This document shows, piece by piece, positions 1,031 to 19,593 of a stretch of DNA of 25,005 nucleotides. The notes under the pieces were generated by a model. The model made no database searches. It saw only the letters and a program-made list of their open reading frames with translations, and was not told the origin of the DNA. The stretch covers positions 1-25,005 of the forward strand of contig JBFIEP010000001.1 of NCBI GenBank assembly GCA_041603335.1, in the 5' to 3' direction. Position numbers and translations under genes: made by a program. This DNA comes from Elusimicrobiota bacterium. Lineage in GTDB: Bacteria; Elusimicrobiota; Elusimicrobia; UBA1565. Positions within the stretch are counted from its first letter, which is position 1. Each line of letters begins with the position of its first letter.

Positions 1031-2152
1031 TTACTTCTCGGCCCGGGCGACGAGCCCAAAATCTTTGCGGTAATGCTTGTATGCAATATCTCCGACCTTG
1101 GTGATGAATTCCTTGGCGCGGCCGTAACTCGCATTGCGGCCGGTCAGCACCGTAATAACAAAATCGCCGTTGGGGGAATACACAACACCGGCATCATGGC
1201 ACGAGCGGCGCAGAAGTCCTGTCTTATGAGCGATCTCCCAGCCGACAGGAAGCTTTTTCGCAAGACGCGTTTTTCCCTTCTTCCCCTTCATAATGTCCAA
1301 CATCAGTTCAGAGGCAAAACTATTTACCAATTGACCGCGATAAGCCTTTTCGAAGATACCCGTCATCTCACGCGCAGTCGTATAGTTCTCGTAGCGAACG
1401 CGCCCGCTCGTTAAACGCAGTCCTTCCGGATAAATTTCGGTATAGACCAGCCCCATCGTCGGAAAGAAGTTTTGCAAATACCCCATTCCGACCTCATCGA
1501 TAAGAAGCAGCATCGCGGTATTATCGGAACGCTGCATCATCTGCTCTAGGAGCTGACGCACCGTGAAGCGGGTTCCATCCCGCCGCCACTTTATCCGGCC
1601 GGAGCCCCCCATGCGCGTGCTGCGGCGGAGTTTGAGCTTGCTATGCAAAGAAAGCCGGCCATTGTGAATCTTGTCAAACACCCCGACCATGACCGGAACC
1701 TTAATGAGGCTTGCCGAGGGGAATAAATCGTCTGGGTGGTAGGCGTAGGTCCAACCGCGCCCCAAATCCCGGACGATTATCGCAACCCGCGCAGGATAGG
1801 CGCGCGCCGCCTTCTCCAGCTCGGCACTCATCTTCTCGAACTCGGGAAGCATGGCGCGATCTTCTTCGGTCAGCGGCCGGGAACTCGCACGCTCGGTGGA
1901 TTCCGGATGGCTCTCTTCCAAAAGCGAGCGGGCCGGATCACTCCCGACGAAACGATCGGACAGCATGCCGCCGGGAGCCGCCAGCATGTAAATCATCGGC
2001 GCAGCGATAAGAAAAATTACGAGGGGAAACTGGAACGAATCAGATGGGACCCAGCTCAAGGCTGAGACAACGCGATCACTAAAGCGCCGTCTCAGCCTCG
2101 ACCGGGAGCGGGAATTACTTAACTTCTGCGGGCGCCTTCGATTCGAAGACAA
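1031..2152 (-). CDS. Class A beta-lactamase-related serine hydrolase / PBP-like protein with an N-terminal membrane anchor
   Basis: Motifs SASLIK (SxxK), SDN and HKTG in the canonical order; Arg-rich N-terminus followed by a hydrophobic segment (FPLVIFLIAAPMIYMLAA). The TTG start overlaps the clpC end by 38 nt and is preceded by an AAGGTGG SD-like sequence; the exact start is uncertain. Confidence 0.88.
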   Translation of the reverse strand: MSSNRRRPQKLSNSRSRSRLRRRFSDRVVSALSWVPSDSFQFPLVIFLIAAPMIYMLAAPGGMLSDRFVGSDPARSLLEESHPESTERASSRPLTEEDRAMLPEFEKMSAELEKAARAYPARVAIIVRDLGRGWTYAYHPDDLFPSASLIKVPVMVGVFDKIHNGRLSLHSKLKLRRSTRMGGSGRIKWRRDGTRFTVRQLLEQMMQRSDNTAMLLLIDEVGMGYLQNFFPTMGLVYTEIYPEGLRLTSGRVRYENYTTAREMTGIFEKAYRGQLVNSFASELMLDIMKGKKGKTRLAKKLPVGWEIAHKTGLLRRSCHDAGVVYSPNGDFVITVLTGRNASYGRAKEFITKVGDIAYKHYRKDFGLVARAEK

Positions 2153-4601
2153 GCTCTTCCACCTTCTCGTCGCCTTTGTGTGTGACCCGGATCACCGAAC
2201 CCTTATCAAACTTCTGAAGCAGGATATCTTCGGCAAGCGGATCCTCAATTAGGCGCTGGATAGTCCGCTGCAGCGGACGTGCTCCGTAATTAGCATCAAA
2301 TCCTTCACTAATGAGATGCTTCTTGGCACTGTCATCGAATTTAATATCGTAGCCCTGGGCTTCGACCTTCTTCACAACTCGCTTGAGCATGATTTCGAGA
2401 ATCTTGGTCATTTCCTTCTCGGTGAGCGGGTGGAACACAAGAATTTCATCGACGCGATTAATGAATTCGGGGTTGAAGACCCGCTTCACCTCGTCCATTA
2501 CCGTACCCTTCATATCCTTATAATCCTTTTCTGAATCTTCCTTCGGAGCAAACCCAAGGGATTTGCCCTTCGTGATCAGACGCGCACCGACGTTTGATGT
2601 CATGATAATGACGCTATTCTTGAAGCTGACTTTATGCCCAAGGTTATCGGAGAGAATTCCATCCTCCATAACCTGAAGCAGGATATTGAACACATCGGGA
2701 TGGGCCTTCTCGATTTCGTCGAGAAGCACGACGGAATAGGGTTTGCGCCGCACGGCCTCGGTTAGCTGACCGCCCTCTTCATAACCGACATACCCGGGAG
2801 GAGCACCAATCAAGCGCGAAACAGCAAACTTTTCCATGTACTCGGACATGTCGATACGAACCATCGCGTCTTCATTGCCAAACAAGGTTTCTGCGAGCGC
2901 ACGCGCAAGCTCGGTTTTTCCGACACCGGTAGGACCAAGGAACACAAAAGATCCGATCGGCTTCTTTGGATCCTTAAGCCCTGTGCGCGAACGGCGGATG
3001 GCTTTCGCGATTGCCCTGATCGCCTCTTCCTGGCCGATCAGTCTCTTGTGAAGCTCTTCTTCCATCTTCACAAGTTTCTGTGTTTCGGTTTCGGTCAGAC
3101 GCGTGACCGGAACGCCGGTCCACTTGCTGACGACATGGGCGATATCCTCTTCGGAAATCTCCGGAGTCGTTTGATCGCGCTTTTCGCGCCACTTCTTCTT
3201 GTCGTCTTCTAGAGCTTTGCGCAGTTCTTTCTCCTTGTCGCGCAGGCGTGCCGCTTTTTCATATTCCTGGTTCGCGATCGCCGCAGACTTATCTTTAACG
3301 ACTTCCGCGATCCCCGACTCCTTTTCCTTGAACTCCGGAGGTGCTTGAGTCGTCTGTAGACGCGCACGCGATCCCGCCTCATCGATCAAGTCAATCGCCT
3401 TGTCAGGCAGGTAGCGCTCGGTGATATAGCGATCGGAAAGCTCCGCCGCCGCATTAAGGGCCTCATCGGTGTACTTGGCTTTGTGATGCGCCTCATACTT
3501 GTCTTTCAGCCCGTGAAGAATTTGAACCGTTTCATCAACAGACGGCGGCTCAACGAGAATCGCTTGGAAGCGGCGCTCAAGAGCGGCGTCGTGCTCGATA
3601 TACTTGCGGTACTCATCAAGCGTGGTCGCACCGATGCACTGCAGTTCACCGCGCGCAAGAGCGGGCTTAAGCATGTTGGACGCGTCGATCGCACCCTCTG
3701 CCGCACCCGCACCGATCACCGTGTGCAGTTCGTCGATGAAAAGAATAATCGAGTTCCGCGAGCGGCGGATTTCTTCAATGATGTTTTTGAGGCGCTGCTC
3801 GAACTCACCGCGGTACTTGGTCCCCGCCACAACCGAAGCGAGATCAAGCGTCAGCACGCGCTTGGAGGCAAGCAACTCAGGGATGTCCCCGGAAACAATT
3901 TTCTGAGCGAGGCCTTCGACGATCGCCGTTTTGCCGACGCCGGGATCACCGATGAGCACCGGATTGTTCTTAGTGCGGCGCGCGCAAATCTGAATCACGC
4001 GCTCGATCTCATCGGCTCGACCGATGACCGGATCCAAACGCCCGTCGCGCGCGTGGGCGGTGAGGTCGCGTCCGAATTCATCAAGCGTCGGCGTCTTTGA
4101 TTTTGACCGTGCACCCGAACCGCTCTGGCCGCCTTGCTGCGGACCGCCAACCTGAGGGGATTGTCCTTCACCGAGAAGATTGAGAACCTCTTCGCGCACA
4201 ACATCGAGGCGCAAACCGAGATTTTCAAGGACGCGCGCGGCGACCCCTTCCTCTTCTCGAATGAGGCCGAGCAGCAAATGCTCGGTCCCAACGTAAGAGT
4301 GCCCCATGTGCTGGGCTTCCTCGACTGCGTATTCGAGAACCTTCTTCGCGCGGGGGGTGAATGGAATTTCACCGAGCAGCATAACGTTATCGCCGGTTCC
4401 GACGATTTTTTCAATCTCGGACCGTACCCGGCGCAAGTCTACGCCGAGATTCGCAAGGACCTGGGCGGCGACGCCTTCTCCGAGTGCGATCAATCCAAGG
4501 AGAATGTGCTCCGTCCCCACATAGTCATGATTGAGTCTCTTCGCCTCTTCTTGGGCGATGAGAATTACACGCTGGGCTCGTTCAGTAAATCGGTTAGACA
4601 T
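2115..4601 (-). CDS. clpC: ATP-dependent Clp protease ATP-binding subunit ClpC
   Basis: Double Clp-N repeat ([15 protein letters not shown]; [10 protein letters not shown]); Walker A GDPGVGKT and GPTGVGKT; Walker B LFIDE and VLLDE; short UVR-type M-domain ([15 protein letters not shown]); ClpP-docking LGF loop; GARPL motif; GAGGG SD upstream. Confidence 0.97.
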
Positions 4602-5004: not shown

Positions 5005-8000
5005 ATGATTCTTAAACAGTCCATTTCGGGACTTCTCGTAATCACTCTCTGTAGCAGTCACGCCACTCCCGCCTTTAGCCGTACGATCGCCGCGGGAAAC
5101 ACGGCGAATGCAAAGGTCGGCATGCCGGCCGCCATCAACACTCCGGCAACGTCTCTCACCACTCTCCCTCAAAACTCTCCCGCCCTCAACGGCGGGATTT
5201 CTTTTGCCCCATCCAACCTTCCCACATTGGATATGGCAAACCCGGCAACCTTGTCGCTAAACGTTACCGGTGTCGCTGGAAAATCTGCTGCAGTCGTTCC
5301 CTCGAATGCAGCCGTTATCCGACAACAGGCACCCGCGGGGTCGATCGCGTCCGTTATGCCCGCTCAGCCGGTCGTTCGCCGAGGACGTACGGCGAACGTC
5401 CAACTTTCCAATGCCGCTGCCCCCAACGCTGCTAAAAAAGAAACGGTTCTTGGATCGGCCGGTGAGCTTAACGCCGCAACCAAGAAATCAGGATTCGGCC
5501 GTGCCGCTCTTGGTCTCTTTAATCGCTTCTTTGACGGATTCGGAAAACGACAGACGCTCAACGGTGCCGATGAAGTAAAAGGGAAAGCGGCACCCGCGCG
5601 GCGCGGCGCTCTCGGCGACGTAGTCTTCCACGCTCTTAAAGACGGCAGCGACATCCGCACGCATCTTCCGCGAACTGTCGTTGTTTACGATACCTTCGCA
5701 GACAAAGCGCCCCAAGCAACTGTCAGCCGCCTACAAACCCTTATTAATGAAGGCGTACACATTGTTGTTATTTCCGACCGTCCCGAACGCGGCGAAGGGT
5801 CGATCGACGAAATTCTCGTTTCTAAACTGAAACCCTCAAAAACGAATCCGATCGCTGTCGCCAGCTATGCCGGTGCGCGCATCTCCTTTAAAGAGTCCTC
5901 GAAATGGACCGTCGTCAATGAAGCCGGTGCCTTCCAGGCGTCCGACATTGACCGCTTGGCGGAAATCGCCGCGCGTGCAAGTAGTGCCGTTAAACTTAAG
6001 AACACTCCCTCCTACACGGTTTCCCCAAAACAGGGCGACGCCCTCTCCGTTGAATTCCACCTGGAAGGAAAAGACCGGACCGGAAAAATTGTCGAAGCCC
6101 GGCGCCGCAATTTCATTGTCCGTTTTAACCGCTCGCTGTCTGCATCCAAGTCACCCTACCGCGCGCAGGAAAACCCCAACGACCCCGCCTCGATTATCAT
6201 AAACGCCTTGGCCCCGCGGCTCGCATTAGGCCGCATCGACAATGCGCTCAATGAACGCTTTAAAGGCGAAGACCTCACAGGAAAAGGCGACGAGACCATG
6301 GTCCTTTTAAGCGCGCGCGGGAACGAATCCTTCATGCGTACGATCACCGCCGATCCGGAATCCGTCCCGGGCTTGTTCCGCAACGCCTCCGTTCTCGACG
6401 CAGCCGATGCCGGCGCCCAAGCTTCGCTGCTCGGCGCCGTTGTCGAGGGGTCTCAACAGGCACCCATCGACGTTTCCATGAGCGACATGCGCCAATACCT
6501 CGACTTCTGGCGTCCCGTACTCGGCCGCAGCGGCAAAATAGCGAAGAGCAAGAACAACACCTCCGCAGGACGCTTCGGTCTTTTCACATGGCAGGTCCTG
6601 CACGACCTCATGACCGACTTCTACGTGGACACCGCCCGCGCCGGAACGAAATACACGAACTTCGGAAAATTCCGGGACTCGCTGCGCATGCGCTGGGCCG
6701 GAAAATCCAAGGACGGAAAGTTCCAACGCTATCGCGGTTCCAAGGCCGGAAAGACCGCAAACTCCGAATACCTCCGACACGCAGAACGCTTCGCCGAGAA
6801 TTTCTGGCAGCGCGAAATCGGCGACTTCCGAACCGCGCAGCTGGACATCCGTGAAAACCTTGTCACTGAAGGGAAGGTTTACACCCAAGTCCCTCTTCGA
6901 TCGCCGTTCACGGGACACACCTATAATCTCGGCGTTTCCATTGACCGCGTCATGAAGGTAGATACCTCCCAGGGCCGGGAATTAAACGCGACGATTTACC
7001 GGTTCGGAAAAGAGGCCGCGACCGACGGCGATGAAGCCCAAGCCCGCGCGGTGGCTCTCGCCGTGCTTCGCGGCTACGGCCGCAAAGGCGTGGACCTAAA
7101 GTGGCACCAGGGCTCCATTGAAGGACCGGCGCTGGCTCGCATCACCGTTCAAATCGAATACCTGAAACGCGCCCGGATTTTCGACTTCACGCCGGATGAA
7201 CTCCTTCAGATTGAAGCCGACGGCTCAATCTCCCAAGGCCCGAAAGCGCTCGAACTCGTTAACGAGATTGAATCCGCACAAGCCGACTACAAGTATGTCG
7301 CCTCTAAAAAGAAGAAGAGCAAGGTTGCTCCCAATCCGGAATGGGAGGGAACGGAGTGGGATGTCCGGGGAGAAGCCCTGAGTAACGTTTTTGCCGGGTA
7401 TTACCCCGACGCCCCAACCGTAGACCGTCTTCGCCCATTTATGAGTGAAGCGACCGCGCTTCGACCGCAGCCGAAATCGGAGCGCAGAGCGCAGATCGAA
7501 ATTCTCGACTCCAAAATCAACTGGCCCTCAAACGCCAAGACGCCCGACCCGATCGATGAGGACGGGTCCCAGATTGAAGACGATATCGAAGCGACGCCGC
7601 GCGTCGTTTTCATCGAAGACATTTTTAATGAACCCGCCGATGACGCAACGGTGGATCGCGTCCAGCGCCTCATCGATGCGGGAGCCCACGTCGTGTTTAT
7701 GACAGCGCGCCCGCACAAAGGGGAGGATTCCGCTGACAGCGTTCTTCTAGACCGTCTCAAGGTCGGACAGGCAAACCCGGTCATCGTCGCCAGCAACAAC
7801 GGCGGCCGCATCGCACTCCACTCCCGAGCGAAGGCATCGAAGCCTTATATTGACGACAGCCGGGCCTTTAACGACGAGACGCTCAAAACCTTCGACACCG
7901 TGGCCAATACCCTTTCCGGCGATCTCGACATTGAGTTTGAAATCGAAGGAACGGCGTTCCAATACGATATCTGGATTCCGCAATCGGTTTCCGCCGGCGA

Positions 8001-9348
8001 CGTCGCTTCAACCCGCTCAAAGTTAATCCGCGGCTTTAACGCGGCAATGAAAGCGGAAGGCCTCGAGTACACCATTCAGAAGCACCCGAAAAACCCGCGC
8101 CAGCTATGGGTCCGCTCCCAGCCGATGCGCATGTCGCTTGACCGCATCTTCCAAGCCCTCGACAAGCGTTTCGCAGGCGAAGAACTTCTCACCCGCCCGG
8201 AAACGTTCTTAGTGATCGGAGACTCGAAACGCTCGCTGAAGCTTTCGAAGGCCTGGCCGAAACTGACGACCTTCCGCTCGGCGCAGAACGAAAGCGAGAT
8301 TTTCGACTACCTCGGAAACATTCTCGGGGATCGAAAACAAAAGCAGGTAGGCGTTAAGCTCGGTGAGATTCGCTCCTACAGTGAGTTCTGGGAACCGATG
8401 CTGGAACGCCGTTCCGGAAACTTCGGAAGCGGGGGACACCAAAGCGCCCGAATGACCGAAGAAGACCGCCGCTACCACGGACCGTTAGCGATGTTCACCG
8501 GGTCTATCTTCTACAAGTTAATGCCGGAACTTTTCGAGAACGTTTGGCGCGGACAAGCCCGCAACACATCACGGTCGCACGCCATGAAGCGCCTTGAAGA
8601 TATGTGGCGCAATCCGGAAAAAGAAGGCGTGTTTGTCAGCAAGCGGCAGGCAGCGGTGATGAGCGAGCCCGGCTGGAAAACCCGCTCACGCGGCTACCTG
8701 CAGCGGGCACTCACGCTCTTTGGTGAAATTTACGACCGCACGTTCGACCACTACACCGACGCGGCCCAGGACATCATGCACAACATGGCCGCCCTCGCGA
8801 CCGATCGCCAAAGCCTGATCACGCTCGTTTTCAAGTCAGGCGGAAAGATCTACAAAGTATTCACGCGGCTGCCGCGGCTCATGAAGCATGACACCGTAGA
8901 CGGTCGGGTGTTGTCGGTAATCGCGTATCGCACCGGAAAGGAGCCTTTCGAAGGCGACGGCGGCGGAATTTACGCGAAAACGCTCGCGATGGCCGTTCTC
9001 GCCGGGTTCGCACAGCCCGGAAACGACGGCCAGTGGCACGACGGCTGGGCACAAGGACCGCGCATTTCAAAACTCCACATTCGATTGGAGTACAAGCAGG
9101 GAGCGCGGGATCTTTACTTCGACCCGAGCGACTTCTTTAAGATCCTGCCCAACGGCAGCTACCGCCAAGGTGTTGTCGTTAAGGAAATCGCAAATTTGAT
9201 CGAGCGCATGCGCGCCGATGAAGAGTTTCAAGAGCACTTCAAAGCTGAGAACGAAAAAGCGACCGATGAAGAAATCGCGGAAGCCAAGAAGAAGGGCAAG
9301 GGGACTGCCAAAAAACCGGCGGTCCTACAGAAGGGGGCAAAAAAATGA
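5005..9348 (+). CDS. P1: 1447-aa leader-bearing protein with two tandem ~550-aa units, each a degenerate HAD-IIB-like domain plus a degenerate PD-(D/E)XK-like domain
   Basis: GAGGGA SD 4 nt before the ATG; signal-peptide-like N-terminus. The internal duplication is visible in aligned blocks (VHIVVISDRP/AHVVFMTARP; NPIAVASYAGARI/NPVIVASNNGGRI; IYRFGKE/IAYRTGKE; WHQGSIEGPAL/WHDGWAQGPRI; IEYLKRAR.FDF/LEYKQGAR.LYF). Confidence 0.9.
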   Translation: MILKQSISGLLVITLCSSHATPAFSRTIAAGNTANAKVGMPAAINTPATSLTTLPQNSPALNGGISFAPSNLPTLDMANPATLSLNVTGVAGKSAAVVPSNAAVIRQQAPAGSIASVMPAQPVVRRGRTANVQLSNAAAPNAAKKETVLGSAGELNAATKKSGFGRAALGLFNRFFDGFGKRQTLNGADEVKGKAAPARRGALGDVVFHALKDGSDIRTHLPRTVVVYDTFADKAPQATVSRLQTLINEGVHIVVISDRPERGEGSIDEILVSKLKPSKTNPIAVASYAGARISFKESSKWTVVNEAGAFQASDIDRLAEIAARASSAVKLKNTPSYTVSPKQGDALSVEFHLEGKDRTGKIVEARRRNFIVRFNRSLSASKSPYRAQENPNDPASIIINALAPRLALGRIDNALNERFKGEDLTGKGDETMVLLSARGNESFMRTITADPESVPGLFRNASVLDAADAGAQASLLGAVVEGSQQAPIDVSMSDMRQYLDFWRPVLGRSGKIAKSKNNTSAGRFGLFTWQVLHDLMTDFYVDTARAGTKYTNFGKFRDSLRMRWAGKSKDGKFQRYRGSKAGKTANSEYLRHAERFAENFWQREIGDFRTAQLDIRENLVTEGKVYTQVPLRSPFTGHTYNLGVSIDRVMKVDTSQGRELNATIYRFGKEAATDGDEAQARAVALAVLRGYGRKGVDLKWHQGSIEGPALARITVQIEYLKRARIFDFTPDELLQIEADGSISQGPKALELVNEIESAQADYKYVASKKKKSKVAPNPEWEGTEWDVRGEALSNVFAGYYPDAPTVDRLRPFMSEATALRPQPKSERRAQIEILDSKINWPSNAKTPDPIDEDGSQIEDDIEATPRVVFIEDIFNEPADDATVDRVQRLIDAGAHVVFMTARPHKGEDSADSVLLDRLKVGQANPVIVASNNGGRIALHSRAKASKPYIDDSRAFNDETLKTFDTVANTLSGDLDIEFEIEGTAFQYDIWIPQSVSAGDVASTRSKLIRGFNAAMKAEGLEYTIQKHPKNPRQLWVRSQPMRMSLDRIFQALDKRFAGEELLTRPETFLVIGDSKRSLKLSKAWPKLTTFRSAQNESEIFDYLGNILGDRKQKQVGVKLGEIRSYSEFWEPMLERRSGNFGSGGHQSARMTEEDRRYHGPLAMFTGSIFYKLMPELFENVWRGQARNTSRSHAMKRLEDMWRNPEKEGVFVSKRQAAVMSEPGWKTRSRGYLQRALTLFGEIYDRTFDHYTDAAQDIMHNMAALATDRQSLITLVFKSGGKIYKVFTRLPRLMKHDTVDGRVLSVIAYRTGKEPFEGDGGGIYAKTLAMAVLAGFAQPGNDGQWHDGWAQGPRISKLHIRLEYKQGARDLYFDPSDFFKILPNGSYRQGVVVKEIANLIERMRADEEFQEHFKAENEKATDEEIAEAKKKGKGTAKKPAVLQKGAKK
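5665..9240 (+). repeat. Protein-level tandem duplication within P1 (unit 1 ~5665-7320, unit 2 ~7594-9240)
   Basis: Collinear amino-acid similarity over the whole unit with an offset of 643 codons; diverged at the DNA level. Confidence 0.85.
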
Positions 9349-12056
9349 CCACGAATATAATGACCCGGGTCTTCCTCGCGATCGCACTCGCCGTGAACGC
9401 CGCCTCCCCGGCCTTCGCCCGCACCCTGACCTCCGTTAAAGTTGCGCCAAGCCTCTCTCCTGTCGCTGGACCGACCGCGATTATGGGAAGCAATGGCGTG
9501 CAGGGCCAATCGCTTAGTCTCTCGGCCCCAACGCTTGGAACATCGCTTCCAACACTTGCACCGGCACTGATGCCCAATACAGTCAATGCCGCCGTTTCAG
9601 AAGCCGCTGCTCCGGTTTCACGCAAATTTGTTCCCACGGCCAGCGGATCCGGCCAAGCACGCGTGATCGAGGCTGCGCCGAAGGCGGCGATTAACGCCGT
9701 ATCTCCCGCTAAGGGCTCGACGTTTAAACAAGCTGCGGCGAAGAGTGAAACGGTGGAGCATACCGTCGGTACAGTATTTTCAGGCCGCGCCGCGAAAATT
9801 ACCGGGCGCGTCCTCAACACGCTCTTTGATTTCAGCGGAGCCAAGAGCGCGCTCAACGGCGCAGATCTCTCTGACAATGCCGTCGACGCGGATGTCGACG
9901 CCAAAGTAAAAGCCGACGCGGAAGAAGATCTATCAATCGTTCCTGAAGATGAAGACGCCGCCTTGGATCTCTGGTTTGGTAAGACAAACCAAGGGAAACT
10001 CTTTGATTCCAAGATTTCGGCCTCCATCCGCCCGATCAACAACAAGGGAAGCGAACGGTTCTGGGGCCAGTATCAGAGGAAAATTCCTATCCGCATCATC
10101 GCCGGCGGAAAGGTTCAGTTCATCACGCGCATCGTCAAATCCTACACCCGAAAAATCAAGGACCTTACTTTAGAGGATTATAAAGCGTATTACGGCTCAC
10201 GCATCGCCGCAAAGAAGGGCGGCGAAACCGACGCGAAACAGCTCCAAAGACTCGAAAACAAGCTTCTCGCCGAAATTAAATGGAAGTCCGAACGGAAACT
10301 CAACGCACCGAAGGTCATCAGCAACGAGATGAAGGTTCGCGTTCTCAACTTCCTTCCTTATGATCAAGCCCGCGATCTCCCGGACAACGGCATTGAAAAG
10401 ACGCCGGCTGTTCGAGATCGCAAGGATCTCGAAATTCCGGCAAAGCTAAAAGACCTCCACCGCCTTTTACCAAGACTCGTCGTCTTCGATCTCCGCCTTT
10501 ACGGAGACCGCATTCCCTTTGATGTGCTCGAAGACATGGGGAAGCTTCAGAAAGCCGGAATGACCTTCGTCTTCCTTTCAGACAAAACACAAGAAGAAGT
10601 CGAGAAGATGATTCGCCGCGACACCCCGGCTCACCAGCAAAACGAAATCACACGCTGGAAATTACTGAGCCTCTCCAACGACGGAAACACCCTCTACGGC
10701 TTCTCGGGTTCTTTTGAGGAACTAAAAACCTCCAAGCAGTTCCAAGCCGACCAGCAGGAAATCATCAAGCGCGCCGCAGGAGCGACGGAAGGTGCGGTTG
10801 TCGTTACCGATCGCCGCTATATGCTTCAAATGCGCGGCAAGCGCGGCGTTAACCTGGATGAACTAAAAACCGCATTCGAGGCCCAACTAAAACGCTTCGG
10901 CATGCCCGAAGGCAGCTACTCGCTTTCCATCGGGGATAAAGAAGGAGCCCCCGTTGTTCAGGTTCGCCCTTCAACCCTAGCCAACTCAATGGAGCAGTTG
11001 ATCGCTGATCTGCAAGTCCACGAAGGCCTCTACCTGAATCAGGAGCATATCCTGACCGTTACAGACGATCCAGCGATCATGAAGGCACTTCCGGGTGCGA
11101 AGCATGCAGCGCCCGACATGCCCAAAGCCACCGACCGCTCCGACTACATTGAAACCGCATTGGCGGCGATGCTTGATACCTACCGCGTCAACAAGGTCGG
11201 GGACCTTGCGGCCTCGGCATCTTCGATGAAATCGTTCAAATACCGGCAACTCTACGGCGGCGGCGGCGGATTTGAATACCGCATCTATATGCTCATGGGA
11301 CACGTCGGGCACGCGGCGCTCGACTGGGCTGTCATGAAGTACAACGAAGACGGAAAACTCCCGCCCTTTGAAGACACCGTGAAGGTTGCCCGGGACATTT
11401 GGGTTCGCGAGCAAATCGATGTGACCAACAACATGCTTGAACGCGCTCGCGAAACGAACCTCGGGTACCGCGATGCGATGGAAGCGCGCATGTTCACCAT
11501 GTACGAAGAACTTCAACGAACGTTGGAGCTCTACCCGATCGCACTTGGAACCGAGCTTCCTAACTTGATGGTGGTCGACCGCTTCAACAAGGTCGGAGAG
11601 CCGACCCACCGCGACATCTTCCGCGGCCTGTTCGACTTGGTCGTCGCCAAAAAAGTGAAGGGCGGACTTGAAGTGTTTGTCACCGACTTTAAGACCGGTC
11701 AAACACCGGCGCTGCAGCACATGTCCAAGGATCTGCAGGTTTTGCTATACGACTTCTTCTCACGCAAGCTCTGGCCGACCATCAATGCGCCGTATTCATT
11801 GGCGCAACCGCTTGTGAAGGTCGTCAGCCGCGTCGTTGCCTTCATCTTCCCGCGCGGCATGCAGGGAAAGACAATCAACGAATTCGACCGCCTGACATTT
11901 GAGAAAACCATCAATCTCCTCATGCTCAAAATGCGTAAGCATAGCGGGAACCTTACCGAAGAGATGATGGAGAAAGAACGCCTGAAGGCGGAACGCGAAG
12001 CGCGCAAGGAACTCGCAGAAGCCAATAAAAACAAGAAAAAGTCCGATAAAAAATAA
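9345..12056 (+). CDS. P2: 903-aa leader-bearing protein with an ASCH/PUA-like domain, a degenerate HAD-like domain and a C-terminal RecB-family PD-(D/E)XK nuclease domain
   Basis: ATGA overlap with the P1 stop. Nuclease motifs SASS..SF, GHVGHAAL, E737, GLFD764L, TD781FK783TG and Q798VLLY802. HAD-like blocks PRLVVFDL, FVFLSDK and LSNDGN. Confidence 0.9.
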   Translation: MTTNIMTRVFLAIALAVNAASPAFARTLTSVKVAPSLSPVAGPTAIMGSNGVQGQSLSLSAPTLGTSLPTLAPALMPNTVNAAVSEAAAPVSRKFVPTASGSGQARVIEAAPKAAINAVSPAKGSTFKQAAAKSETVEHTVGTVFSGRAAKITGRVLNTLFDFSGAKSALNGADLSDNAVDADVDAKVKADAEEDLSIVPEDEDAALDLWFGKTNQGKLFDSKISASIRPINNKGSERFWGQYQRKIPIRIIAGGKVQFITRIVKSYTRKIKDLTLEDYKAYYGSRIAAKKGGETDAKQLQRLENKLLAEIKWKSERKLNAPKVISNEMKVRVLNFLPYDQARDLPDNGIEKTPAVRDRKDLEIPAKLKDLHRLLPRLVVFDLRLYGDRIPFDVLEDMGKLQKAGMTFVFLSDKTQEEVEKMIRRDTPAHQQNEITRWKLLSLSNDGNTLYGFSGSFEELKTSKQFQADQQEIIKRAAGATEGAVVVTDRRYMLQMRGKRGVNLDELKTAFEAQLKRFGMPEGSYSLSIGDKEGAPVVQVRPSTLANSMEQLIADLQVHEGLYLNQEHILTVTDDPAIMKALPGAKHAAPDMPKATDRSDYIETALAAMLDTYRVNKVGDLAASASSMKSFKYRQLYGGGGGFEYRIYMLMGHVGHAALDWAVMKYNEDGKLPPFEDTVKVARDIWVREQIDVTNNMLERARETNLGYRDAMEARMFTMYEELQRTLELYPIALGTELPNLMVVDRFNKVGEPTHRDIFRGLFDLVVAKKVKGGLEVFVTDFKTGQTPALQHMSKDLQVLLYDFFSRKLWPTINAPYSLAQPLVKVVSRVVAFIFPRGMQGKTINEFDRLTFEKTINLLMLKMRKHSGNLTEEMMEKERLKAEREARKELAEANKNKKKSDKK

Positions 12057-12081: not shown

Positions 12082-12109
12082 GGCCCCGCCGCGGCGGGGC
12101 CTTTTTTTT
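12082..12109 (+). terminator. Rho-independent terminator after the P1-P2 operon
   Basis: GGCCCCGCC / GGCGGGGCC GC-rich inverted repeat followed by T8 (12102-12109), 25 nt after the P2 stop; an A-rich run upstream may make it bidirectional. Confidence 0.92.
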
Positions 12110-12200: not shown

Positions 12201-12208
12201 AGTTGTAT

Positions 12209-15200
12209 ATGGAAAAGAAGAAATCTATCCCGTCATCCTTTATCAAATCCCTTTCAATCTCTGTCGCTGCCGCCCTGATCGTCGCCTCGCCCGGTCCCTT
12301 TGCGACCCGTGCGTTTGCGAAGGTACTAGGGAAGGCTCCGACGAACATCTCTGTTGGCGTGACCCTTGGCCAGATCGGACTACCGGCTCTCGGCTCCCCT
12401 TCATTAACGAACGCAAACGCCACGCTTGCCGCGCCGCAGCTCGGAGCCAGCGTTCTTCCGACGCTTATTGCGCCGACATTCACCCAAAGCAAAACGGTCG
12501 CCCAGCAGGCGACCGTTTCTCGTTCCGCCGCGCCGGAAGCCGCAATCGCTGCCGAGCAGATAATTTCGATCGCTCCGACATCCGCACGCTCACTTGTTGT
12601 TGAAGAAACGGAAACCGCGAAGAAGGAACAGCCCACAACGCTTCAGGACCTGACAGCCGGCGTTGCGGAAATTAAACAAGCGAAGTCGCACTCCGGTGCC
12701 CGCGCAGCACTCACAAATCTTTTCACCGGCAGCCGCAAGACAGCGCGAACAGATACGGTTCTCGGCCGTATCGGACAACGCGCCAGTTCCCTTCTTTCGC
12801 CTGCGAAATCGCTTAACGCAGCCGATGAAAAATCGTCAAAGAAAACAACGGACGTTCCCGCGCCTCCGGCAGCCAATGACGACTTTCTCGATAAGCAGGC
12901 GACAAAGCAGGTCGCAAACCTCGTTGCTGAATACAAACGCATCGATGAAGCCGGACTGTGGGCCGACGCGAAAGAAACCGCGGTTTTCGTTAAAGAAATA
13001 ACCTGGTTCGCCGCCCGAGGGCGGGACAAGGACGGATCACCGGAACTCTCGATTCAAAAAATCGAGGAAGCACTCGCCGCAGAAGGCATCTCCAACACCG
13101 CCGCAGTGCGCAAACAGCTCATCGCTTTAAATGAGTCCACCCAATTAGGCCTCTCGGAACAAAAAGCCGCCGGCGGATCCTACCTCGCCGCAGAGGGCGT
13201 TGATGACGACGGCTTTACACCGATGCAGCGAAAAGGTCTTTTCGGAATGCTTTGGTCCCGCCCTTTTGGAATGCTCGGCTTCTCACTGAGCGCGATGGCC
13301 TATCCCTTGATGCTCATCGACACCGTTGGAAAATCAACGATGTATGAGCTCTTCTCCTTGGGCGGCATCATCTCCATTGGCGTCAATCTGCTTGTCGGAA
13401 AAGTCGGAGACCACCTTCCGCTTAAGAAATACATCGTTTTCAACGCCCTTCTCCGCTCGGCATTAAGCGCGGCCAACGCCGTTCTTTACACGATGGGCTT
13501 CCTCAATTTCTGGTCCCTGCTGTTTCTCACCGTCATCAACGCCTGGCAGTTCGCCAGCCTCTTCATTACCGATGACGCGATGATGGCCGAAATCGTAGGC
13601 CCCAACCGGAAGAAGATCTTTTCGACGTCCATCCTCATCCGGACGATGGGACTATTCGTCACGATCGGTTCCGGCATTTTCCTCGGAGAATTCATCGTTG
13701 ATGGATTAGGATTTGTAGCCACCTTCTCAATCGTTACGGTCGCCGCCGCCATCCCGGCCCTTATTCTCTGGGGAGCACTGCCCAACATCGGCGTAAAGGA
13801 TGGAAACGCGCCGCTTGGAACGGTTCTCGCGAAACTTCCGGGGATGGTTCTCGCCGCACCGGGCAAAGCTTTCAACGCCCTTAAAGGTCTGCCGTGGAAA
13901 AAATACGGGTCTTACGCCCTGACAGCCCTCAGCCTGGGTTCGACAGCGGCAGCCTTCTACTTCGGAACCCCGCTAGTGGGAACAGCCATTACAATGACCT
14001 ACGGCGTCATCGGCGGCGTTCTTGTCGCGGCGGCATCGTCTATCGGACTCGTTGCGGCCAACCGCCTCATGAAGGCGCACAAGGCCGAGCAGTCGGGAGA
14101 ACCGATCGAAGACAAAGAGGGCGACAACGTTCGCACCGTTCTCTTTAATACCGCGATCATCGGAGCAGCCCTCGCCGGCTACACCTTCATCTACCAGACG
14201 CCGTTCTGGTTTGTCGGCGGCGTAACCTACATGCTCACACGATCGGAAATCTTTAAGAAAGTCATCATGCGCCACGGCCTGCTAAAGATGGCGCTGCTCA
14301 TGGTTATCGCGACGACATTCGTAGAGGTCCCGCTTAGAAACGCCGTGCTGGGTGCACTCTCGGAAGAACTCGTCGGCGAAGCCGGCAAGGCTGCCTTCTA
14401 CGGAAAGCTGATCGCCGCGTTCACGCTCGGACAGCTCGTCACGGCGACGGGGAATCTTTCCCGGTCGCTGCAGATTGTGGTCAAAAAGCTCGGGTTCTTT
14501 AAACTAAAGAAACCGCTCTCCTTCAATCTATACCACACAACGCGCTGGCTCGGCGCCGCGGTACTCGCCGCGTGGGGACTCTACTTCATCGTTCCCGCCG
14601 GTTGGCTCGCCATGGCTGCCGCAGCGGTTCCGAATCTCACCGCCCAATTCGGATTTGAGGCCGGAATAAAACTCGGACTCATCGGGCCGTTGCTCGGAAT
14701 GTTTGCCGGTGCCATGACAGCACTCTGGGGCTACGCACGCCAAGACAAAGGCAAGAAATTCGGCTCAACACTTAAGACGGTGGGAACCATCGGGTTTGTC
14801 GCGGCCTTAACACTTCCGATTCTACCCGGACTCATCGCGGCTCTACCCGCAGGCGTCACAACGGCCCTGGGTCTGGCCATTGCCGGCGGAGCGTTCTACA
14901 AGTTCTACCAGCTCATCCATGACAACGCCAAAACAATTAAGCCGACCTCGTGGCTCCGCCTGGAAGCGGTGGGACTCGTCGCCATCGGTGTTCTTCCGCT
15001 CGTGACAGGGTTTAACCCGATTGCGCTGTACGCCAGCTTATTCCTATTCGGAATGACGCATACGCCGGCTAAGTACAATATTGGATCAGCCTACTCGGCT
15101 ACCGCTAAAGAAGTAGACGATAAGAACTACCAGTTCCTCAGCGCCATTAAGGGAACGTTTGTGGTCATGGCAGGGTCCATTGCCTACGCGATATACGGCC

Positions 15201-15367
15201 TGGCCAAGGATATACCCGAGATGCTCTGGGACAATCCGAACGCCTTCCCGTTCACCTGGCAGGTGCTCGCGGTCATTTACGGCGCCATTGCCGCCCTGTA
15301 TGTTTACAGCAGTTACCGGATGAATTTCGACAAGAAGAAAGCATCCGAAAAAAAGACGGAAAAATAA
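12209..15367 (+). CDS. P3: 1052-aa leader-bearing protein with a short helical domain and an expanded (~20 TM) MFS-type permease
   Basis: Start moved from TTG 12203 to ATG 12209 on promoter geometry. MFS motif-A-like G-KVGD-HLPLKK after TM2; many hydrophobic helices; collinear similarity to the P4 MFS region. Confidence 0.88.
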   Translation: MEKKKSIPSSFIKSLSISVAAALIVASPGPFATRAFAKVLGKAPTNISVGVTLGQIGLPALGSPSLTNANATLAAPQLGASVLPTLIAPTFTQSKTVAQQATVSRSAAPEAAIAAEQIISIAPTSARSLVVEETETAKKEQPTTLQDLTAGVAEIKQAKSHSGARAALTNLFTGSRKTARTDTVLGRIGQRASSLLSPAKSLNAADEKSSKKTTDVPAPPAANDDFLDKQATKQVANLVAEYKRIDEAGLWADAKETAVFVKEITWFAARGRDKDGSPELSIQKIEEALAAEGISNTAAVRKQLIALNESTQLGLSEQKAAGGSYLAAEGVDDDGFTPMQRKGLFGMLWSRPFGMLGFSLSAMAYPLMLIDTVGKSTMYELFSLGGIISIGVNLLVGKVGDHLPLKKYIVFNALLRSALSAANAVLYTMGFLNFWSLLFLTVINAWQFASLFITDDAMMAEIVGPNRKKIFSTSILIRTMGLFVTIGSGIFLGEFIVDGLGFVATFSIVTVAAAIPALILWGALPNIGVKDGNAPLGTVLAKLPGMVLAAPGKAFNALKGLPWKKYGSYALTALSLGSTAAAFYFGTPLVGTAITMTYGVIGGVLVAAASSIGLVAANRLMKAHKAEQSGEPIEDKEGDNVRTVLFNTAIIGAALAGYTFIYQTPFWFVGGVTYMLTRSEIFKKVIMRHGLLKMALLMVIATTFVEVPLRNAVLGALSEELVGEAGKAAFYGKLIAAFTLGQLVTATGNLSRSLQIVVKKLGFFKLKKPLSFNLYHTTRWLGAAVLAAWGLYFIVPAGWLAMAAAAVPNLTAQFGFEAGIKLGLIGPLLGMFAGAMTALWGYARQDKGKKFGSTLKTVGTIGFVAALTLPILPGLIAALPAGVTTALGLAIAGGAFYKFYQLIHDNAKTIKPTSWLRLEAVGLVAIGVLPLVTGFNPIALYASLFLFGMTHTPAKYNIGSAYSATAKEVDDKNYQFLSAIKGTFVVMAGSIAYAIYGLAKDIPEMLWDNPNAFPFTWQVLAVIYGAIAALYVYSSYRMNFDKKKASEKKTEK

Positions 15368-15381
15368 CGATTATTTATACC

Positions 15382-15397
15382 TAGGCCGTAGGTCCCA
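15382..15397. promoter_or_regulatory. Candidate operator TAGGCCGTAGGTCCCA upstream of P4
   Basis: Best-matching copy of the motif shared by four upstream regions. Confidence 0.55.
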
Positions 15398-15414
15398 ATA
15401 ACTCCTAGGCACAC

Positions 15415-15453
15415 AAACACCCTCTGGGCCCCTTATTGGCTCAGGGGGTGTTT
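15415..15453 (+). other. 16-bp RNA stem-loop in the P3-P4 intergenic region
   Basis: AAACACCCTCTGGGCC-(CCTTATT)-GGCTCAGGGGGTGTTT pairs without interruption, with two G-U pairs on the plus strand; it ends 24 nt before the AGGAGGT SD. Confidence 0.7.
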
Positions 15454-15489
15454 CGGGTTTTGAGACACAATTTAAATAGGAGGTGGTTG

Positions 15490-18400
15490 ATGTATATTAA
15501 TTCCAGAATCGCTGTCGGAGCAACCCGAATGATATCGGGACTGCTCGTTATTGCGATCTGGATTTCTTCAATTGGACCCGCCGCAGCCCAGGCTGCCGGT
15601 CCTGTCATAGGCAAAACCGCTGCGGGCGCCATCAAAGCTCCGGCCACGCTCGTCATCCCCTCCATTGCCGCTCCCATTCTCGGAAATACCGCCTCAAATT
15701 CAATTGTTCCTGGACTTGAATCAGGAGTACTTCCCACTTTAACTCCTACGATTCTCGCGACACCCGAAAAGGCCGCATCTGTTTCCGTTCAAAAATCCCC
15801 TATTGCAGAATCAATTGCTTCGGCAGAGACAAAGGCAGAGGAAGAAAAACCCGCCAAAACCGTTCGTGAACAAGTCGTAAAAGTCGCACAGCAACTCACC
15901 CAAACCAAGGGTTCATCCGCTCAAGCTAAAGTCCTAAACACTCTCTATCTTGGCGGACTTAATGCTGCGGACGAATCCAATAATGGCGTCGACGCCTCGG
16001 GAGGCACGCCCTCGAAAAATGTGCGCCTGCGCAAACAGGCGCTCGCGGAACTCGTCATTGCGGCAACCCAACCCAAAAGCACGCTCAAGAGCCGCAAGGC
16101 TGCAATTCGAGTTATCGCGAAGGTCCAAACCGAAGAAGCACGCGAAGCGCTGGAGCTCGTCGCGGACGCAAACCCCGAGGGAAACGCGCAGGACTATGAG
16201 ATCCACCGCGAAGCACTCAAAGCCCTTGATGCAAAATTCGGACTCCACAAATCCCTTCGCCCCATCTCAGAGTCGCACAAAAACGAGATTCTCGCACAAC
16301 TCGCCGCCGACAAACCCGAAATGGTCCTTACCGACTATGACCGCACCCTCGCGGAGACGAAGGTTGAAATTTCACCGGAGATGGCCGAGGCGGTAGCATC
16401 TGTCCCTAACGCGGGCGTGGAAATTGCAATCCTAACCGACCGACCCGCGCAGCCGCGCTTTGAAGGCGACATCACCATCTTTCAATCACTCGAATCAATG
16501 ACGCCCGCTCAAAAGAGCAAGCTCACCGTACTCTCCGATATCGGGTCAAAAACGTCCCTTTTTAACAAAAACGGCTCACCCCAATTGATCGGTGAAGTAA
16601 GGACCGAATTAACCGCTCAACAGCGGGAGGTGCTCGGCAAGGCTTCAAAGGCGCTTCAGGAGCGGTTCGGGGACCAGGACTTTCTTGGCAACACGGAAGT
16701 CTATGAAGCCGATTCCTACGAACGCTTTCTCCCCAAATCCCTAAGCGATGCGGAAATTGCGGAAGCCGGATTGCTGGTAGAAACCATCCTCAAGGCGGAC
16801 GGTGTTCTCGACGCTCATATCGTCTCCCGCCGGCCGCTGGGAAAAGGGGACGTTCCCTACGTTCGCGTTAACATCGTTGATAAATCCGCTTCCGCAGCCC
16901 GTATCCGCAAGGATGTCCGCTTTCTGGAACGGGCCCGCGACGTCATCCGCTTCGGCGGCGGGACACGCGCGCTGAAGTTCGCTAAGAAAATTTTCTCCCG
17001 TTTCCCCCGGCGGCCTGTGACCGCGAGAAAAACCGTCGTTATCGGCGACAGCTTTATGCCCGAAGTCGTCGCTCCGGGATCTGACGCCCTGATGGCAAAA
17101 GGCGCCCCCGAAGCTCTGTCCTTCGCCGTCGCGGGAGTCGCGAGCCCCCGCGTCAACAACGTGTTCGTTTGGCCCACCATGGGGGAAACCGCTTCGCTAG
17201 AAATTCTCGGGGCCATCGGAACGAAAGCCGTAAGCGATGTCGATAAAAAAGGCGTCGCGGGTCTCTTCGCGCAGCGAACGATTGCGATCACAACCTTTAT
17301 TCTCACAACAATTGCGTTTACAGCCATCGCGGTTCCCGCCATCGGGTGGGTCGGCTACGGAACGGTCATGGCCGTGGGTGCGTTAGCCCCCATTGCCGTG
17401 GGTCCTCTTAACGGCTGGATCGTCGATAAGCTCTCAGCCCGCAATTCGATGATGATGAATCAAACCGCACGCGTACTCCTGGACTTCCTTCCCCCCGCGC
17501 TCGTCTTGCTGGGAATGGTGAATACGCCGATGCTTATCGTCGCGGCGATCGCGAACTTCTGGGTTCTTTCCTCGGTCATGACGACCGAGGGCGCCTACAT
17601 TAAACGCCTCGCCGGGAAAAAATACGTGGGTCCGATTAACAGCCTGCTTTGGATGAACTACCTGGTCGTTCAGGTTGTCCTGGCTCTCATCCTTGGGTTC
17701 GGAGCGGTCGTTGGAATCGTGGGGCCTATCAATGCCTACTTCATCGCCGCCGCCATCAACGCCTTTATTATTATGCCGATCGTCTGGGTTACGATGCCGA
17801 ACGCAAAACCGATCCCAAAAACATTGTTGGGCATAGAATCGGAAATGCAAGGACTGAAAGACGGCCCTCGCCTTAAAAATCTCGAGAAAGCCCTGAATGA
17901 AAGAGAGTCGGCTTTAAACAAAGAAGTCGACCAATTTGAACTTGCCCTCGCCGATCTTGAGAATAATAAATCCCCCGATGTTGAGACAGAGCTTCGCGTA
18001 ACCCGTGAAGACCTTGCCGCGATGCGCGCGGAGCTCGCCCGAACACCGGCACCTTCCTTCACTCTCGCCCAGCGAAAGACAAATCTCAAAATCAAAATCG
18101 CAGCCGGACTAAAGCAATACGGCATTGGATTCGGACTGCTCGGGGCATCAGTCCTTAGCTACATTTTCCTATGGGCCTCCCCGGTTCCCATTGCGATCGC
18201 GTTGGGCTATCTTGTTTTACGCACCGACGGCGCAAAACTGCTGTGGTCCGGTCGCGGACGCGATATCAGCAAACAGGAATCCCAACTCGTTGAAACGATA
18301 CGCGCGCTGGAAGCGGAAGGCAAAACGGATTCGAAAGAACTAAAAGAGGCTAAGTCGGAACTCACCCGCTGGAAAAAATCTCCCCGCATCGCGATGCTCT

Positions 18401-19167
18401 ATATCGCACTCGGCGCGCTGACGCTCGGTCCGCTGCAAAGCTTCGGGATTCCCCGCTTCACCGAAGCCGTGACGGGACTGCCGATGTCTTCGCCTGAATC
18501 CTCGCTTCTCTTCGGCCAATACCTGGGAGCCATGTTTTTTGGAAGCCTGATCGCTAACGCGGCCCAGGTGCGGCTTCCCGAAATTCACGTCCCTTTGTTC
18601 GGCCGCATCGGAGGCCACCGCTTTGTACAAGGACTCGTTGCGGCACTCGCACCCATCTGGGTATACACCAGCCTCATTCCGGGAAGCGTTGTCGCTTCCG
18701 GCGCGGCACTCATTTTAGTCAGCGCACTTATGGCCATGGCCGCAAAACTCACAAACCGGGCGTGGATAAAAATTCTTGGACTCGGAATGGCGGGAATCTG
18801 GCTTCCCTATCTTGCCTGGGGCTCAGCCTTCCTATCACCCGGATTAGCGATGTTCCTGTCCGTGCTGCTCGCGGGGATGGTCTACGGCCCTGCGTTTGTT
18901 TCACTTAAAACGATTTTCGAGGGGAGTCTCCAAAAGAGTCTGCTTGGAAAAATGATCGGTGTTCAAGGCTCCTTGTTGAGTACGGCACGGGCCATCTCCA
19001 TTGGCGGAGCGGCAGCGATCTATGGGGCGCTAAACCCGGCATTTCCGACATTTTTGGGGGTGCTGGGAGGGTTCTACCTCTTAATTGGAATCGCCTTCTG
19101 GATTGCGCCGCGCTTCTTCCCCGCCTTACCCAAGACCCACCTCCGGCCAAACGACCGCCGCCGCTAA
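15490..19167 (+). CDS. P4: 1225-aa leader-bearing fusion of HEAT-like repeats, a HAD-IIB (Cof-type) phosphatase and an expanded (~16 TM) MFS permease with coiled-coil inserts
   Basis: Perfect AGGAGGT SD 5 nt before ATG 15490 (track start 15436 is too long). HAD motifs D282YD284RT, ILTDR, VDKS and VIGD520S...SD532. MFS motif-A-like GWIVDKLSARN. HEAT-like RKAAIRVIAKV..EEAREAL. Confidence 0.9.
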   Translation: MYINSRIAVGATRMISGLLVIAIWISSIGPAAAQAAGPVIGKTAAGAIKAPATLVIPSIAAPILGNTASNSIVPGLESGVLPTLTPTILATPEKAASVSVQKSPIAESIASAETKAEEEKPAKTVREQVVKVAQQLTQTKGSSAQAKVLNTLYLGGLNAADESNNGVDASGGTPSKNVRLRKQALAELVIAATQPKSTLKSRKAAIRVIAKVQTEEAREALELVADANPEGNAQDYEIHREALKALDAKFGLHKSLRPISESHKNEILAQLAADKPEMVLTDYDRTLAETKVEISPEMAEAVASVPNAGVEIAILTDRPAQPRFEGDITIFQSLESMTPAQKSKLTVLSDIGSKTSLFNKNGSPQLIGEVRTELTAQQREVLGKASKALQERFGDQDFLGNTEVYEADSYERFLPKSLSDAEIAEAGLLVETILKADGVLDAHIVSRRPLGKGDVPYVRVNIVDKSASAARIRKDVRFLERARDVIRFGGGTRALKFAKKIFSRFPRRPVTARKTVVIGDSFMPEVVAPGSDALMAKGAPEALSFAVAGVASPRVNNVFVWPTMGETASLEILGAIGTKAVSDVDKKGVAGLFAQRTIAITTFILTTIAFTAIAVPAIGWVGYGTVMAVGALAPIAVGPLNGWIVDKLSARNSMMMNQTARVLLDFLPPALVLLGMVNTPMLIVAAIANFWVLSSVMTTEGAYIKRLAGKKYVGPINSLLWMNYLVVQVVLALILGFGAVVGIVGPINAYFIAAAINAFIIMPIVWVTMPNAKPIPKTLLGIESEMQGLKDGPRLKNLEKALNERESALNKEVDQFELALADLENNKSPDVETELRVTREDLAAMRAELARTPAPSFTLAQRKTNLKIKIAAGLKQYGIGFGLLGASVLSYIFLWASPVPIAIALGYLVLRTDGAKLLWSGRGRDISKQESQLVETIRALEAEGKTDSKELKEAKSELTRWKKSPRIAMLYIALGALTLGPLQSFGIPRFTEAVTGLPMSSPESSLLFGQYLGAMFFGSLIANAAQVRLPEIHVPLFGRIGGHRFVQGLVAALAPIWVYTSLIPGSVVASGAALILVSALMAMAAKLTNRAWIKILGLGMAGIWLPYLAWGSAFLSPGLAMFLSVLLAGMVYGPAFVSLKTIFEGSLQKSLLGKMIGVQGSLLSTARAISIGGAAAIYGALNPAFPTFLGVLGGFYLLIGIAFWIAPRFFPALPKTHLRPNDRRR

Positions 19168-19215: not shown

Positions 19216-19593
19216 ATGGCTTTAATTCTCATCGCGGAAGACGATCCCGATATCGCCGGCATGCTGCAGGATATTCTTCAGTCCAAAGGACATCAGGTCG
19301 CAATTTCGGTTGACGGTGTCGAAATGATCGAACGCGCCAAATCGATTCAACCCAAGATCATTGTCTCGGATGTCATGATGCCCGGAGCCTACGGATCTTC
19401 TGCCTATAAATCCCTACAGGATGATGAATTTACCAAAGGAATTCCTATTCTTTTTCTTACCGCCATTACCCCGGAGCAGGCGGCCAAGGTGATTCCCCGC
19501 GCCGACGATATTCGCGTTCTTCACAAACCCCTCGACTTACCGGCATTTTTGACCACCGTTGACGAACTGCTTGCTCTAGCAGACTCCAAGTAA
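19216..19593 (+). CDS. Single-domain (CheY-like) response regulator
   Basis: ILIAEDD, VSDVMMP (phosphoacceptor Asp), FLTA and LHKP; no output domain. TGaTACGAT extended -10 at 19198-19206. Confidence 0.93.
   Translation: MALILIAEDDPDIAGMLQDILQSKGHQVAISVDGVEMIERAKSIQPKIIVSDVMMPGAYGSSAYKSLQDDEFTKGIPILFLTAITPEQAAKVIPRADDIRVLHKPLDLPAFLTTVDELLALADSK

Follow-up and report, generated by a model that had tools for sequence, protein, structure and literature searches.

RecB-family nucleases are known from helicase-nuclease machines, from CRISPR adaptation, and from mitochondrial DNA maintenance, and the members closest to the protein described here are the nuclease domain of AddB from AddAB (PDB 4cej_B and 3u44_B), MGME1, Cas4, and RecB itself. 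Its other relatives belong to two further superfamilies. On the side of the ASCH proteins (PF04266) these include the Escherichia coli N4-acetylcytidine (ac4C) amidohydrolase YqfB (9kyf), EF3133 (1t62), an ASCH protein from Lactobacillus crispatus (3s9x), and the ASCH ribonuclease from Zymomonas mobilis (5guq), while on the side of the HAD-IIB (Cof-type) phosphatases and phosphomutases they include 4bnd, ISN1 (6rmo), the trehalose-6-phosphate phosphatases, and YbiV (1rlo). According to its structural model, the protein P2 is a three-domain protein new to description that joins an ASCH fold, a remodelled phosphatase (HAD) fold, and a complete RecB/AddB-type nuclease. It is encoded in a stretch of 25,005 nucleotides from an Elusimicrobiota bacterium (assembly GCA_041603335.1, contig JBFIEP010000001.1, positions 1 to 25,005), hereafter the window, together with its upstream neighbor P1 and its downstream neighbors P3 and P4. 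The explanation that best accounts for the whole, although it is held with no more than even confidence, is that P2 acts as the catalytic subunit of a conserved two-gene module, in which a dead paralogue precedes P2, and that it is a membrane-held nuclease.

The model of P2 was obtained with AlphaFold2 on an alignment of 38 orthologous sequences with identities down to 26% (pTM 0.70), and was divided into its three domains by Foldseek and VIA-align comparisons against the PDB. Residues 1-204 are disordered except for the helix of the leader, and pLDDT is mostly above 85 over residues 205-903. For the nuclease domain, the model recovers a restriction-endonuclease-like fold similar to that of AddB. 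This agrees with the Pfam family PDDEXK_1 (PF12705), which matches residues 650-809 with 27.3 bits against a cut-off of 22, and which is found in 34 of the 37 orthologous domains (best E 6.5e-9). The active-site residues are E737 in GTELPNL, D764 in LFDLVV, D781-F782-K783 in VTDFKTG, and Q798 and Y802 in LQVLLYD. All seven are invariant in the 38 orthologues, as are G652, H653, and H656 of the GHxxH helix, which corresponds to the first RecB motif, and such invariance at these distances argues that the motif is not a product of chance. P2 has no cysteine, and the 38 orthologues hold none in the 32,109 residues that follow position 40, which excludes the 4Fe-4S cluster bound by four cysteines in AddB and Cas4. 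No helicase domain is detected by Pfam in P2, in the other three proteins, or in the flanking genes, and the synteny of four other genomes with P2 includes no SF1 helicase or helicase-like gene. The preliminary description of this locus had read a complete RecB signature (E737...D764...D781-F-K783...Q798xxxY802) without a helicase and without iron-sulfur cysteines, and its reading holds for every named residue and for both absences. Judged by its sequence, P2 thus carries a complete RecB-type active site in a stand-alone, helicase-free, and Fe-S-free form. Among the solved structures, sequence profiles retrieved nothing beyond low-complexity or chance matches, whether they were built from the whole family, the ASCH part, or the nuclease part.

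The second component of the module was recognized through the distant relatives, where a gene for a protein of 760-910 aa without Pfam match precedes P2, overlapping it by 4 nt in three of the four loci compared; in the remaining locus, a short gap separates the two genes. A profile built from 35 of these P1-like proteins aligns with the P2 profile from the HAD into the nuclease domain (hhalign probability 98.7, E 2.4e-16). These partners have no ASCH domain and every catalytic residue of the nuclease is replaced in them: the GTE motif has disappeared, PR stands in place of FD, and an invariant YR in place of DFK. A P1-like gene lies directly upstream and on the same strand in 17 of the 20 P2-bearing genomes, the other three being contig breaks or a miss. 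In the window, P1 has 1447 aa and consists of two units of the dead paralogue, duplicated in tandem, with a Lys-rich C-terminal tail that resembles that of P2. This two-unit form was seen only in the window and in G182 and G072, that is, in its own genus and in the nearest one; a single P1-like unit of approximately 760-830 aa is present in G144, from the same family, and in every other genome. By analogy with AddA/AddB or RecB/RecC, the coupling of an active subunit with a dead paralogue that has been conserved suggests that P1 and P2 form a heteromer.

The same paralogue bears on the idea that P2 is itself a pseudo-enzyme, with a structural or regulatory role in a membrane complex and with motifs conserved for fold stability or ligand binding. 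The HAD domain of P2 and the partner P1 already present enzyme folds in a non-catalytic form, and the catalytic role of P2 has been read from sequence. Yet the seven catalytic residues and the histidines of the GHxxH helix do not change down to 26% identity, while the paralogue has lost them all; this contrast speaks for a retained active site in P2 and makes the pseudo-enzyme the least probable of the explanations considered here.

The HAD domain presents a different situation from that of the nuclease, as its fold is kept and its active site has been remodelled. The AlphaFold model and the fold search assign it to HAD subfamily IIB, with a Rossmannoid core and a C2B cap. The assignment is one of fold, and no HAD model of Pfam or NCBIfam matches P2. 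In HAD phosphatases, the Asp at position +2 of motif I, DxDx(T/V), is the general acid/base. The nucleophile of this motif, D382, is invariant (38/38), and the +2 Asp is never present, its place being taken by Arg in 33 orthologues, Lys in two, Ser in two, and Ala in one. The motif aligns with the intact DYDRT of the neighbor P4, which confirms the register. The Ser/Thr of motif II is present in all 38 sequences and D575, the candidate residue of motif IV, in 31, whereas no motif III Lys can be assigned from the sequence alignment. In addition, invariant residues new to this site, E396, D397, and K400, are found behind motif I. Since these residues and Arg384 are themselves conserved, the remodelled site is under selection and not in simple decay. 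The label "pseudo-HAD" that the domain had received is fair with regard to phosphatase chemistry, while the binding of phosphate or of another ligand is possible.

For the N-terminal domain, the earlier proposal of an ASCH/PUA module for the region of residues 223-338 stands as regards the fold but not as regards the sequence match on which it was built. The AlphaFold model and the fold search place an ASCH-type, PUA-like beta-barrel over this region, so that the objection foreseen in the preliminary description, a failure to model as such a barrel, does not apply; the assignment is again one of fold. Pfam ASCH (PF04266) matches none of the 38 ASCH-like segments, even at E values up to 10, and no ASCH protein is among the matches of a PDB profile search with this part. 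A canonical ASCH protein that stands alone is encoded elsewhere in the genome (G000:C830:586-1029, locus L008; PF04266, 33 bits), and the domain has no profile similarity with it (hhalign probability 0.2). ASCH proteins reportedly carry an N-terminal signature of the type GxKxxExR. P2 reads S-K-I-S-A-S-I-R in this region, where SIR (residues 227-229) had been likened to an ASCH "TIR", and with the register set by eye these columns are poorly kept: R229 in 27 of the 38 sequences (Gly in eight, a whole clade), S227 in 23, and K223 in ten. The residues that are conserved lie elsewhere in the domain, with F259 and D278 invariant and S236, W240, T268, and R332 nearly so. Because the signature is not conserved, ASCH-type catalysis is unlikely, and a role in binding or positioning would be the better expectation.

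Directly behind the ASCH matches, the fold search with this domain ranks the sensor domains of two modification-dependent restriction enzymes, VcaM4I (EVE) and TagI, which raises the question of whether P2 might be a modification-dependent, Type IV-like restriction or defence nuclease. In that case, the ASCH domain would detect a base modification in invading DNA, which the PD-(D/E)XK domain would then cut, possibly at the membrane where phage DNA enters. RecB/AddB-type nucleases with a QxxxY motif are, however, end-processing enzymes and not site-specific endonucleases. Moreover, the putative pocket signature of the ASCH domain is not conserved, and P2 behaves unlike a member of a defence island: it is single-copy and keeps the same neighbors across the order, with ClpC and the P1-like gene on one side, large membrane proteins and a response regulator on the other, and thioredoxin-PolA in some genomes. 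The absence of any PADLOC match is the reason why this explanation is ranked low, and it is considered improbable, even though modification-dependent restriction endonucleases (MDREs) such as YenY4I (PMC6765204) show the same domain order, with a PUA-superfamily sensor at the N-terminus, a PD-(D/E)XK nuclease at the C-terminus, and another domain between them.

The location of P2 in the cell is the point on which the evidence is most divided. The preliminary description had placed the enzyme behind a signal-like leader and had taken it to be exported. The leader itself is confirmed: all 38 orthologues have a signal-peptide-like N-terminus, with a K/R n-region in 34, a hydrophobic core of mean Kyte-Doolittle value 2.4, and, under a lenient pattern, a small-x-small motif in 38, and the same features are found in 34 of the 35 P1-like partners. 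Lipoprotein, prepilin, and sortase signals were considered and rejected, as a lipobox Cys at +1 and a G↓FxxxE motif are both absent, and LPTL does not conform to LPxTG. If the leader is a Sec signal, P2 would be released to the periplasm, the surface, or the medium, where it would break down DNA or RNA from the environment, serving either the scavenging of nucleotides or the uptake of DNA, and the phosphatase-MFS protein and the other transporters that carry the same leader would import the products. Several observations besides the leader favor this possibility, which is a serious one, although it falls clearly short of being the probable one. The cysteines of the P2 orthologues are confined to the leaders, which hold seven, and the P1-like proteins hold 52 in their leaders and only two in 25,807 mature residues, against a genome background of 0.63%. 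The long, uncharged, A/P-rich spacer behind the leader is typical of envelope proteins; its charge-free stretch has a median of 43.5 aa in the P2 family and 54 aa in the P1-like family, compared with 13 aa in the folded parts. The neighbors, finally, are transporters and one intact HAD-IIB phosphatase.

What speaks for the cytoplasm comes from the other proteins that bear this N-terminus. The leader, the A/P-rich linker, and the motif LN[GA]AD form one module: a signal-like helix, often with the sequence ..LSPG..Y.AFA[KR]T, a linker of approximately 150-200 aa, and then LN[GA]AD. This module, which is that of P1-P4, is present on at least 19 ORFs of the 84%-complete genome, and also on the transporter genes that adjoin P2 in other genomes. 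Its cargo comprises ABC exporters, an M48 peptidase, an alpha-amylase domain, two Pol-beta nucleotidyltransferase (NTase) domains, a LOG/SLOG domain, and, in P4, an intact Cof-type HAD, while several of the ORFs have no Pfam match. The Pol-beta NTases, the LOG protein, and the Cof-type HAD are typical cytoplasmic enzymes, the first two being dependent on NTP. In one of the ABC exporters (L017, G000:C161:2467-5202), the hydrophobic cores are spaced by 39/62/5/82 aa, the pattern of a type I exporter whose first transmembrane segment (TM1) begins in the cytoplasm, and no hydrophobic segment is found between leader and TM1. In P3 and P4 (window 12203-19167), MFS motif A and the positive-inside pattern place the preceding soluble domains in the cytoplasm. 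These topologies, for P3, P4, and two ABC proteins, come from a crude count of hydropathy and positive-inside residues that is clear for TM1-TM5 and too rough for every helix. The result is a paradox: MFS or type I ABC transmembrane domains that must begin in the cytoplasm stand behind a leader resembling a Sec signal, with nothing hydrophobic in between.

Leaders so nearly alike could not be distinguished by the Sec machinery, and the cell can hardly treat them differently; it is for this reason that the claim of export is not followed here and that the catalytic domains of P2 are placed, by preference, on the cytoplasmic side. Export is further weakened by the basic residue that directly follows AxA in the genus of the window, and by the high number of long ORFs without cysteine in this genome (201 of 850); P3 and P4 likewise lack it, despite their cytoplasmic loops. 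To our knowledge, no RecB-family nuclease that has been characterized is extracytoplasmic. Taken together, a membrane-tethered P2 with cytoplasmic domains is moderately favored, and an exported one is the lesser possibility. The linker of P2 includes, besides LPTL, LNTLFDF, and LNGADL (residues 170-175), a charge-free stretch of 53 aa (residues 33-85, window 9441-9599). Across the orthologues, the stretch at this position is made of A/P/S/L/G, its best 19-aa hydropathy of ~1.35-1.44 is borderline for a membrane segment, and it is absent in a few of them, so that a return crossing of the membrane at this point is speculation.

In the preferred explanation, that of a membrane-held nuclease with a dead partner, the hydrophobic leader and the disordered linker of ~175 aa would hold the enzyme at the cytoplasmic membrane, with the catalytic domains facing the cytoplasm and processing nucleic acid at the membrane, beside the leader-tagged transporters. 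By analogy with AddB, MGME1, and Cas4, P2 would be a nuclease that depends on Mg/Mn and attacks the single-stranded ends or flaps of nucleic acids, and DNA would be a somewhat likelier substrate than RNA. The ASCH fold, present only in the active subunit, may capture or select the substrate by its strand or by a modified base, and the remodelled HAD domain, common to P2 and to its dead partner, may serve as a scaffold or as a phosphate-binding and pairing domain. Several points weigh against this explanation. The N-terminus of P2 bears every feature of a Sec signal in all the orthologues, the distribution of cysteines between leaders and mature parts is that expected of an extracytoplasmic protein, acidic residues follow the hydrophobic core in the deep-branching orthologues, and the positively charged N-terminal tail speaks against an N-out anchor. 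In addition, substrate and polarity are taken from distant structural relatives with 12-14% identity, the HAD and ASCH assignments come from the fold, and the complex of P1 and P2 is deduced from synteny and translational coupling.

A broader proposal is that the P1-like/P2 pair constitutes the nucleic-acid-cutting arm of a lineage-specific set of ~20 proteins per genome. Their shared module of signal-like helix, charge-free stretch, LxxLF, and LN[GA]AD would be a new membrane anchor or targeting tag, gathering transporters (ABC, MFS), peptidases (M48, and an S8 protein beside the pair in a relative), and enzymes of nucleotides and nucleic acids (the nuclease, the Pol-beta NTases, LOG, and the Cof-type phosphatase) at one membrane site, as a hitherto unknown machine for the processing or uptake of nucleic acids or nucleotides, or for defence, whose topology breaks the signal-peptide rule. 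As a whole, this proposal is rather unlikely.

At the level of the gene, P2 is a single ORF of 903 aa (window 9345-12056, forward strand) and single-copy in the genome of the window; the G+C content of the window is ~55%. The preliminary description had dealt with positions 10011-11760, which correspond to residues 223-805. The TGA stop of P1 overlaps the ATG of P2 in the sequence ATGA, and a GC-rich hairpin of eight G-C pairs followed by T8 lies 3' of P2; overlap and terminator together indicate that P1 and P2 form one operon. The database copy of P2 has 898 aa and begins at the second in-frame ATG (MTRVF..., window 9360). It is the 903-aa reading that yields the overlap with P1, and the leader is kept with either start. 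The coordinates of the individual features are collected in Table 1.

Table 1. Coordinates of the P1-P2 operon in the window, and of further loci with the leader module in the same genome
Feature	Position	Strand	Remark
P1, two tandem units of the dead paralogue (pseudo-HAD and pseudo-nuclease, without ASCH)	5005-9348	+	
P2, signal-peptide-like hydrophobic leader, aa 1-26 (...AASPAFA↓RT)	9345-9422	+	
P2, disordered A/P/S/T-rich linker, aa 27-204	9423-9956	+	pLDDT ~30
P2, ASCH-fold (PUA-like) domain, aa 205-344, by model	9957-10376	+	long helix inserted at 296-315
P2, HAD-IIB-fold domain, aa 374-614, by model	10464-11186	+	remodelled active site (D382-L-R384; S412)
P2, RecB/AddB-type PD-(D/E)XK nuclease domain, aa 616-868	11190-11948	+	without Fe-S cluster
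P2, Lys/Glu-rich C-terminal helix, aa 872-903, then stop codon	11958-12056	+	helix modelled 872-902
Terminator, GC-rich hairpin and T8, closing the P1-P2 operon	12082-12109		
Leader-module loci L009-L020, contigs of the genome of the window (G000)	C2:11655-13670, C28:102-3341, C40:63-3437, C46:8697-10943, C96:1-1659, C113:73-2418		
Leader-module loci L009-L020, G000, continued	C142:4448-6301, C148:3211-5718, C161:2467-5202, C176:2-2098, C44:732-7193, C358:1-3372		

The family is small. A profile search against 1.84 billion representative proteins gave 54 matches at E values up to 0.001, consisting of full-length orthologues, fragments, and weaker P1-like paralogues, and all the named matches are from Elusimicrobiota. 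The homologues of P2 come from metagenome-assembled genomes of this phylum, where they are annotated as "hypothetical" or "PD-(D/E)XK nuclease family protein". Of 301 sampled Elusimicrobiota genomes, 21 carry the family; all but one of these fall into two families of a single order, and the remaining one is from the same class. An ESM Atlas fold search with residues 365-868 of the model returned generic HAD and UvrD-PDDEXK clusters and two weak, mostly Bacillota clusters (representatives of 778 and 628 aa) that align over the HAD and nuclease parts with TM-scores of 0.29-0.39, a hint that proteins combining a HAD with a nuclease-like part may not be limited to Elusimicrobiota. No paper on the P2 family was found in the literature on ASCH-RecB fusions and on Elusimicrobia nucleases.

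Regarding the individual neighbors, the upstream side is occupied by ClpC and a beta-lactamase-like gene both in the window (2115-4601 and 1031-2152, on the reverse strand) and in the related locus L006. A single-domain response regulator follows the large membrane proteins in the window (19216-19593, forward strand) and in L004 and L007, and in the latter two it is followed in turn by thioredoxin and PolA. The membrane proteins of this neighborhood switch family between genomes and include MFS, ABC, M48, and S8-HEAT proteins.

A RecB nuclease that is free of helicase and Fe-S cluster, and that is wired to an ASCH and a remodelled HAD domain, a dead paralogue, and a membrane tether, would widen the repertoire of this family, and the ASCH fold would gain a concrete partner activity. 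Were P2 exported, it would be, as far as we know, the first extracytoplasmic nuclease of the RecB type. Were it cytoplasmic, it would be a clear case in which standard signal-peptide prediction misleads, and would point to an undescribed membrane-tethering module on ~20 proteins of little-studied groundwater bacteria. The shared leader module is a more novel matter than P2 itself.

Compared with AddB, MGME1, Cas4, and RecB, P2 shows ~12% identity, has no match in the PDB at the level of sequence, and lacks both the helicase or helicase-like domains and the Fe-S cysteines; instead, its nuclease domain shares a polypeptide with ASCH and HAD folds, behind a hydrophobic leader and a long disordered linker. 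Contrary to the helicase-nuclease complexes RecBCD, AddAB, and AdnAB, neither the protein nor its operon includes SF1 helicase domains. From the ASCH superfamily, the N-terminal domain differs in its lack of detectable sequence similarity, in the partial and unconserved signature, in its extra long helix, and in being embedded in a protein of 900 aa with several domains. With respect to the HAD-IIB enzymes, the differences are the loss of the +2 Asp (Arg in most orthologues), the lack of a Pfam or NCBIfam HAD match, and the new invariant residues behind motif I. The nearest architecture is that of the MDREs, which are built from a PUA-superfamily sensor and a PD-(D/E)XK or HNH nuclease, as in YenY4I (Lutz et al. 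2019, PMC6765204), and for which the conclusion of that study lists SRA, EVE, and genuine PUA domains as sensors. P2 shares their order of parts, but its sensor is of the ASCH type, its nuclease of the RecB/AddB type, and its middle domain a HAD fold, and, besides lacking a PADLOC match, it differs from them in having an obligate dead paralogue as partner, a leader with its linker, and a conserved place in the core genome.

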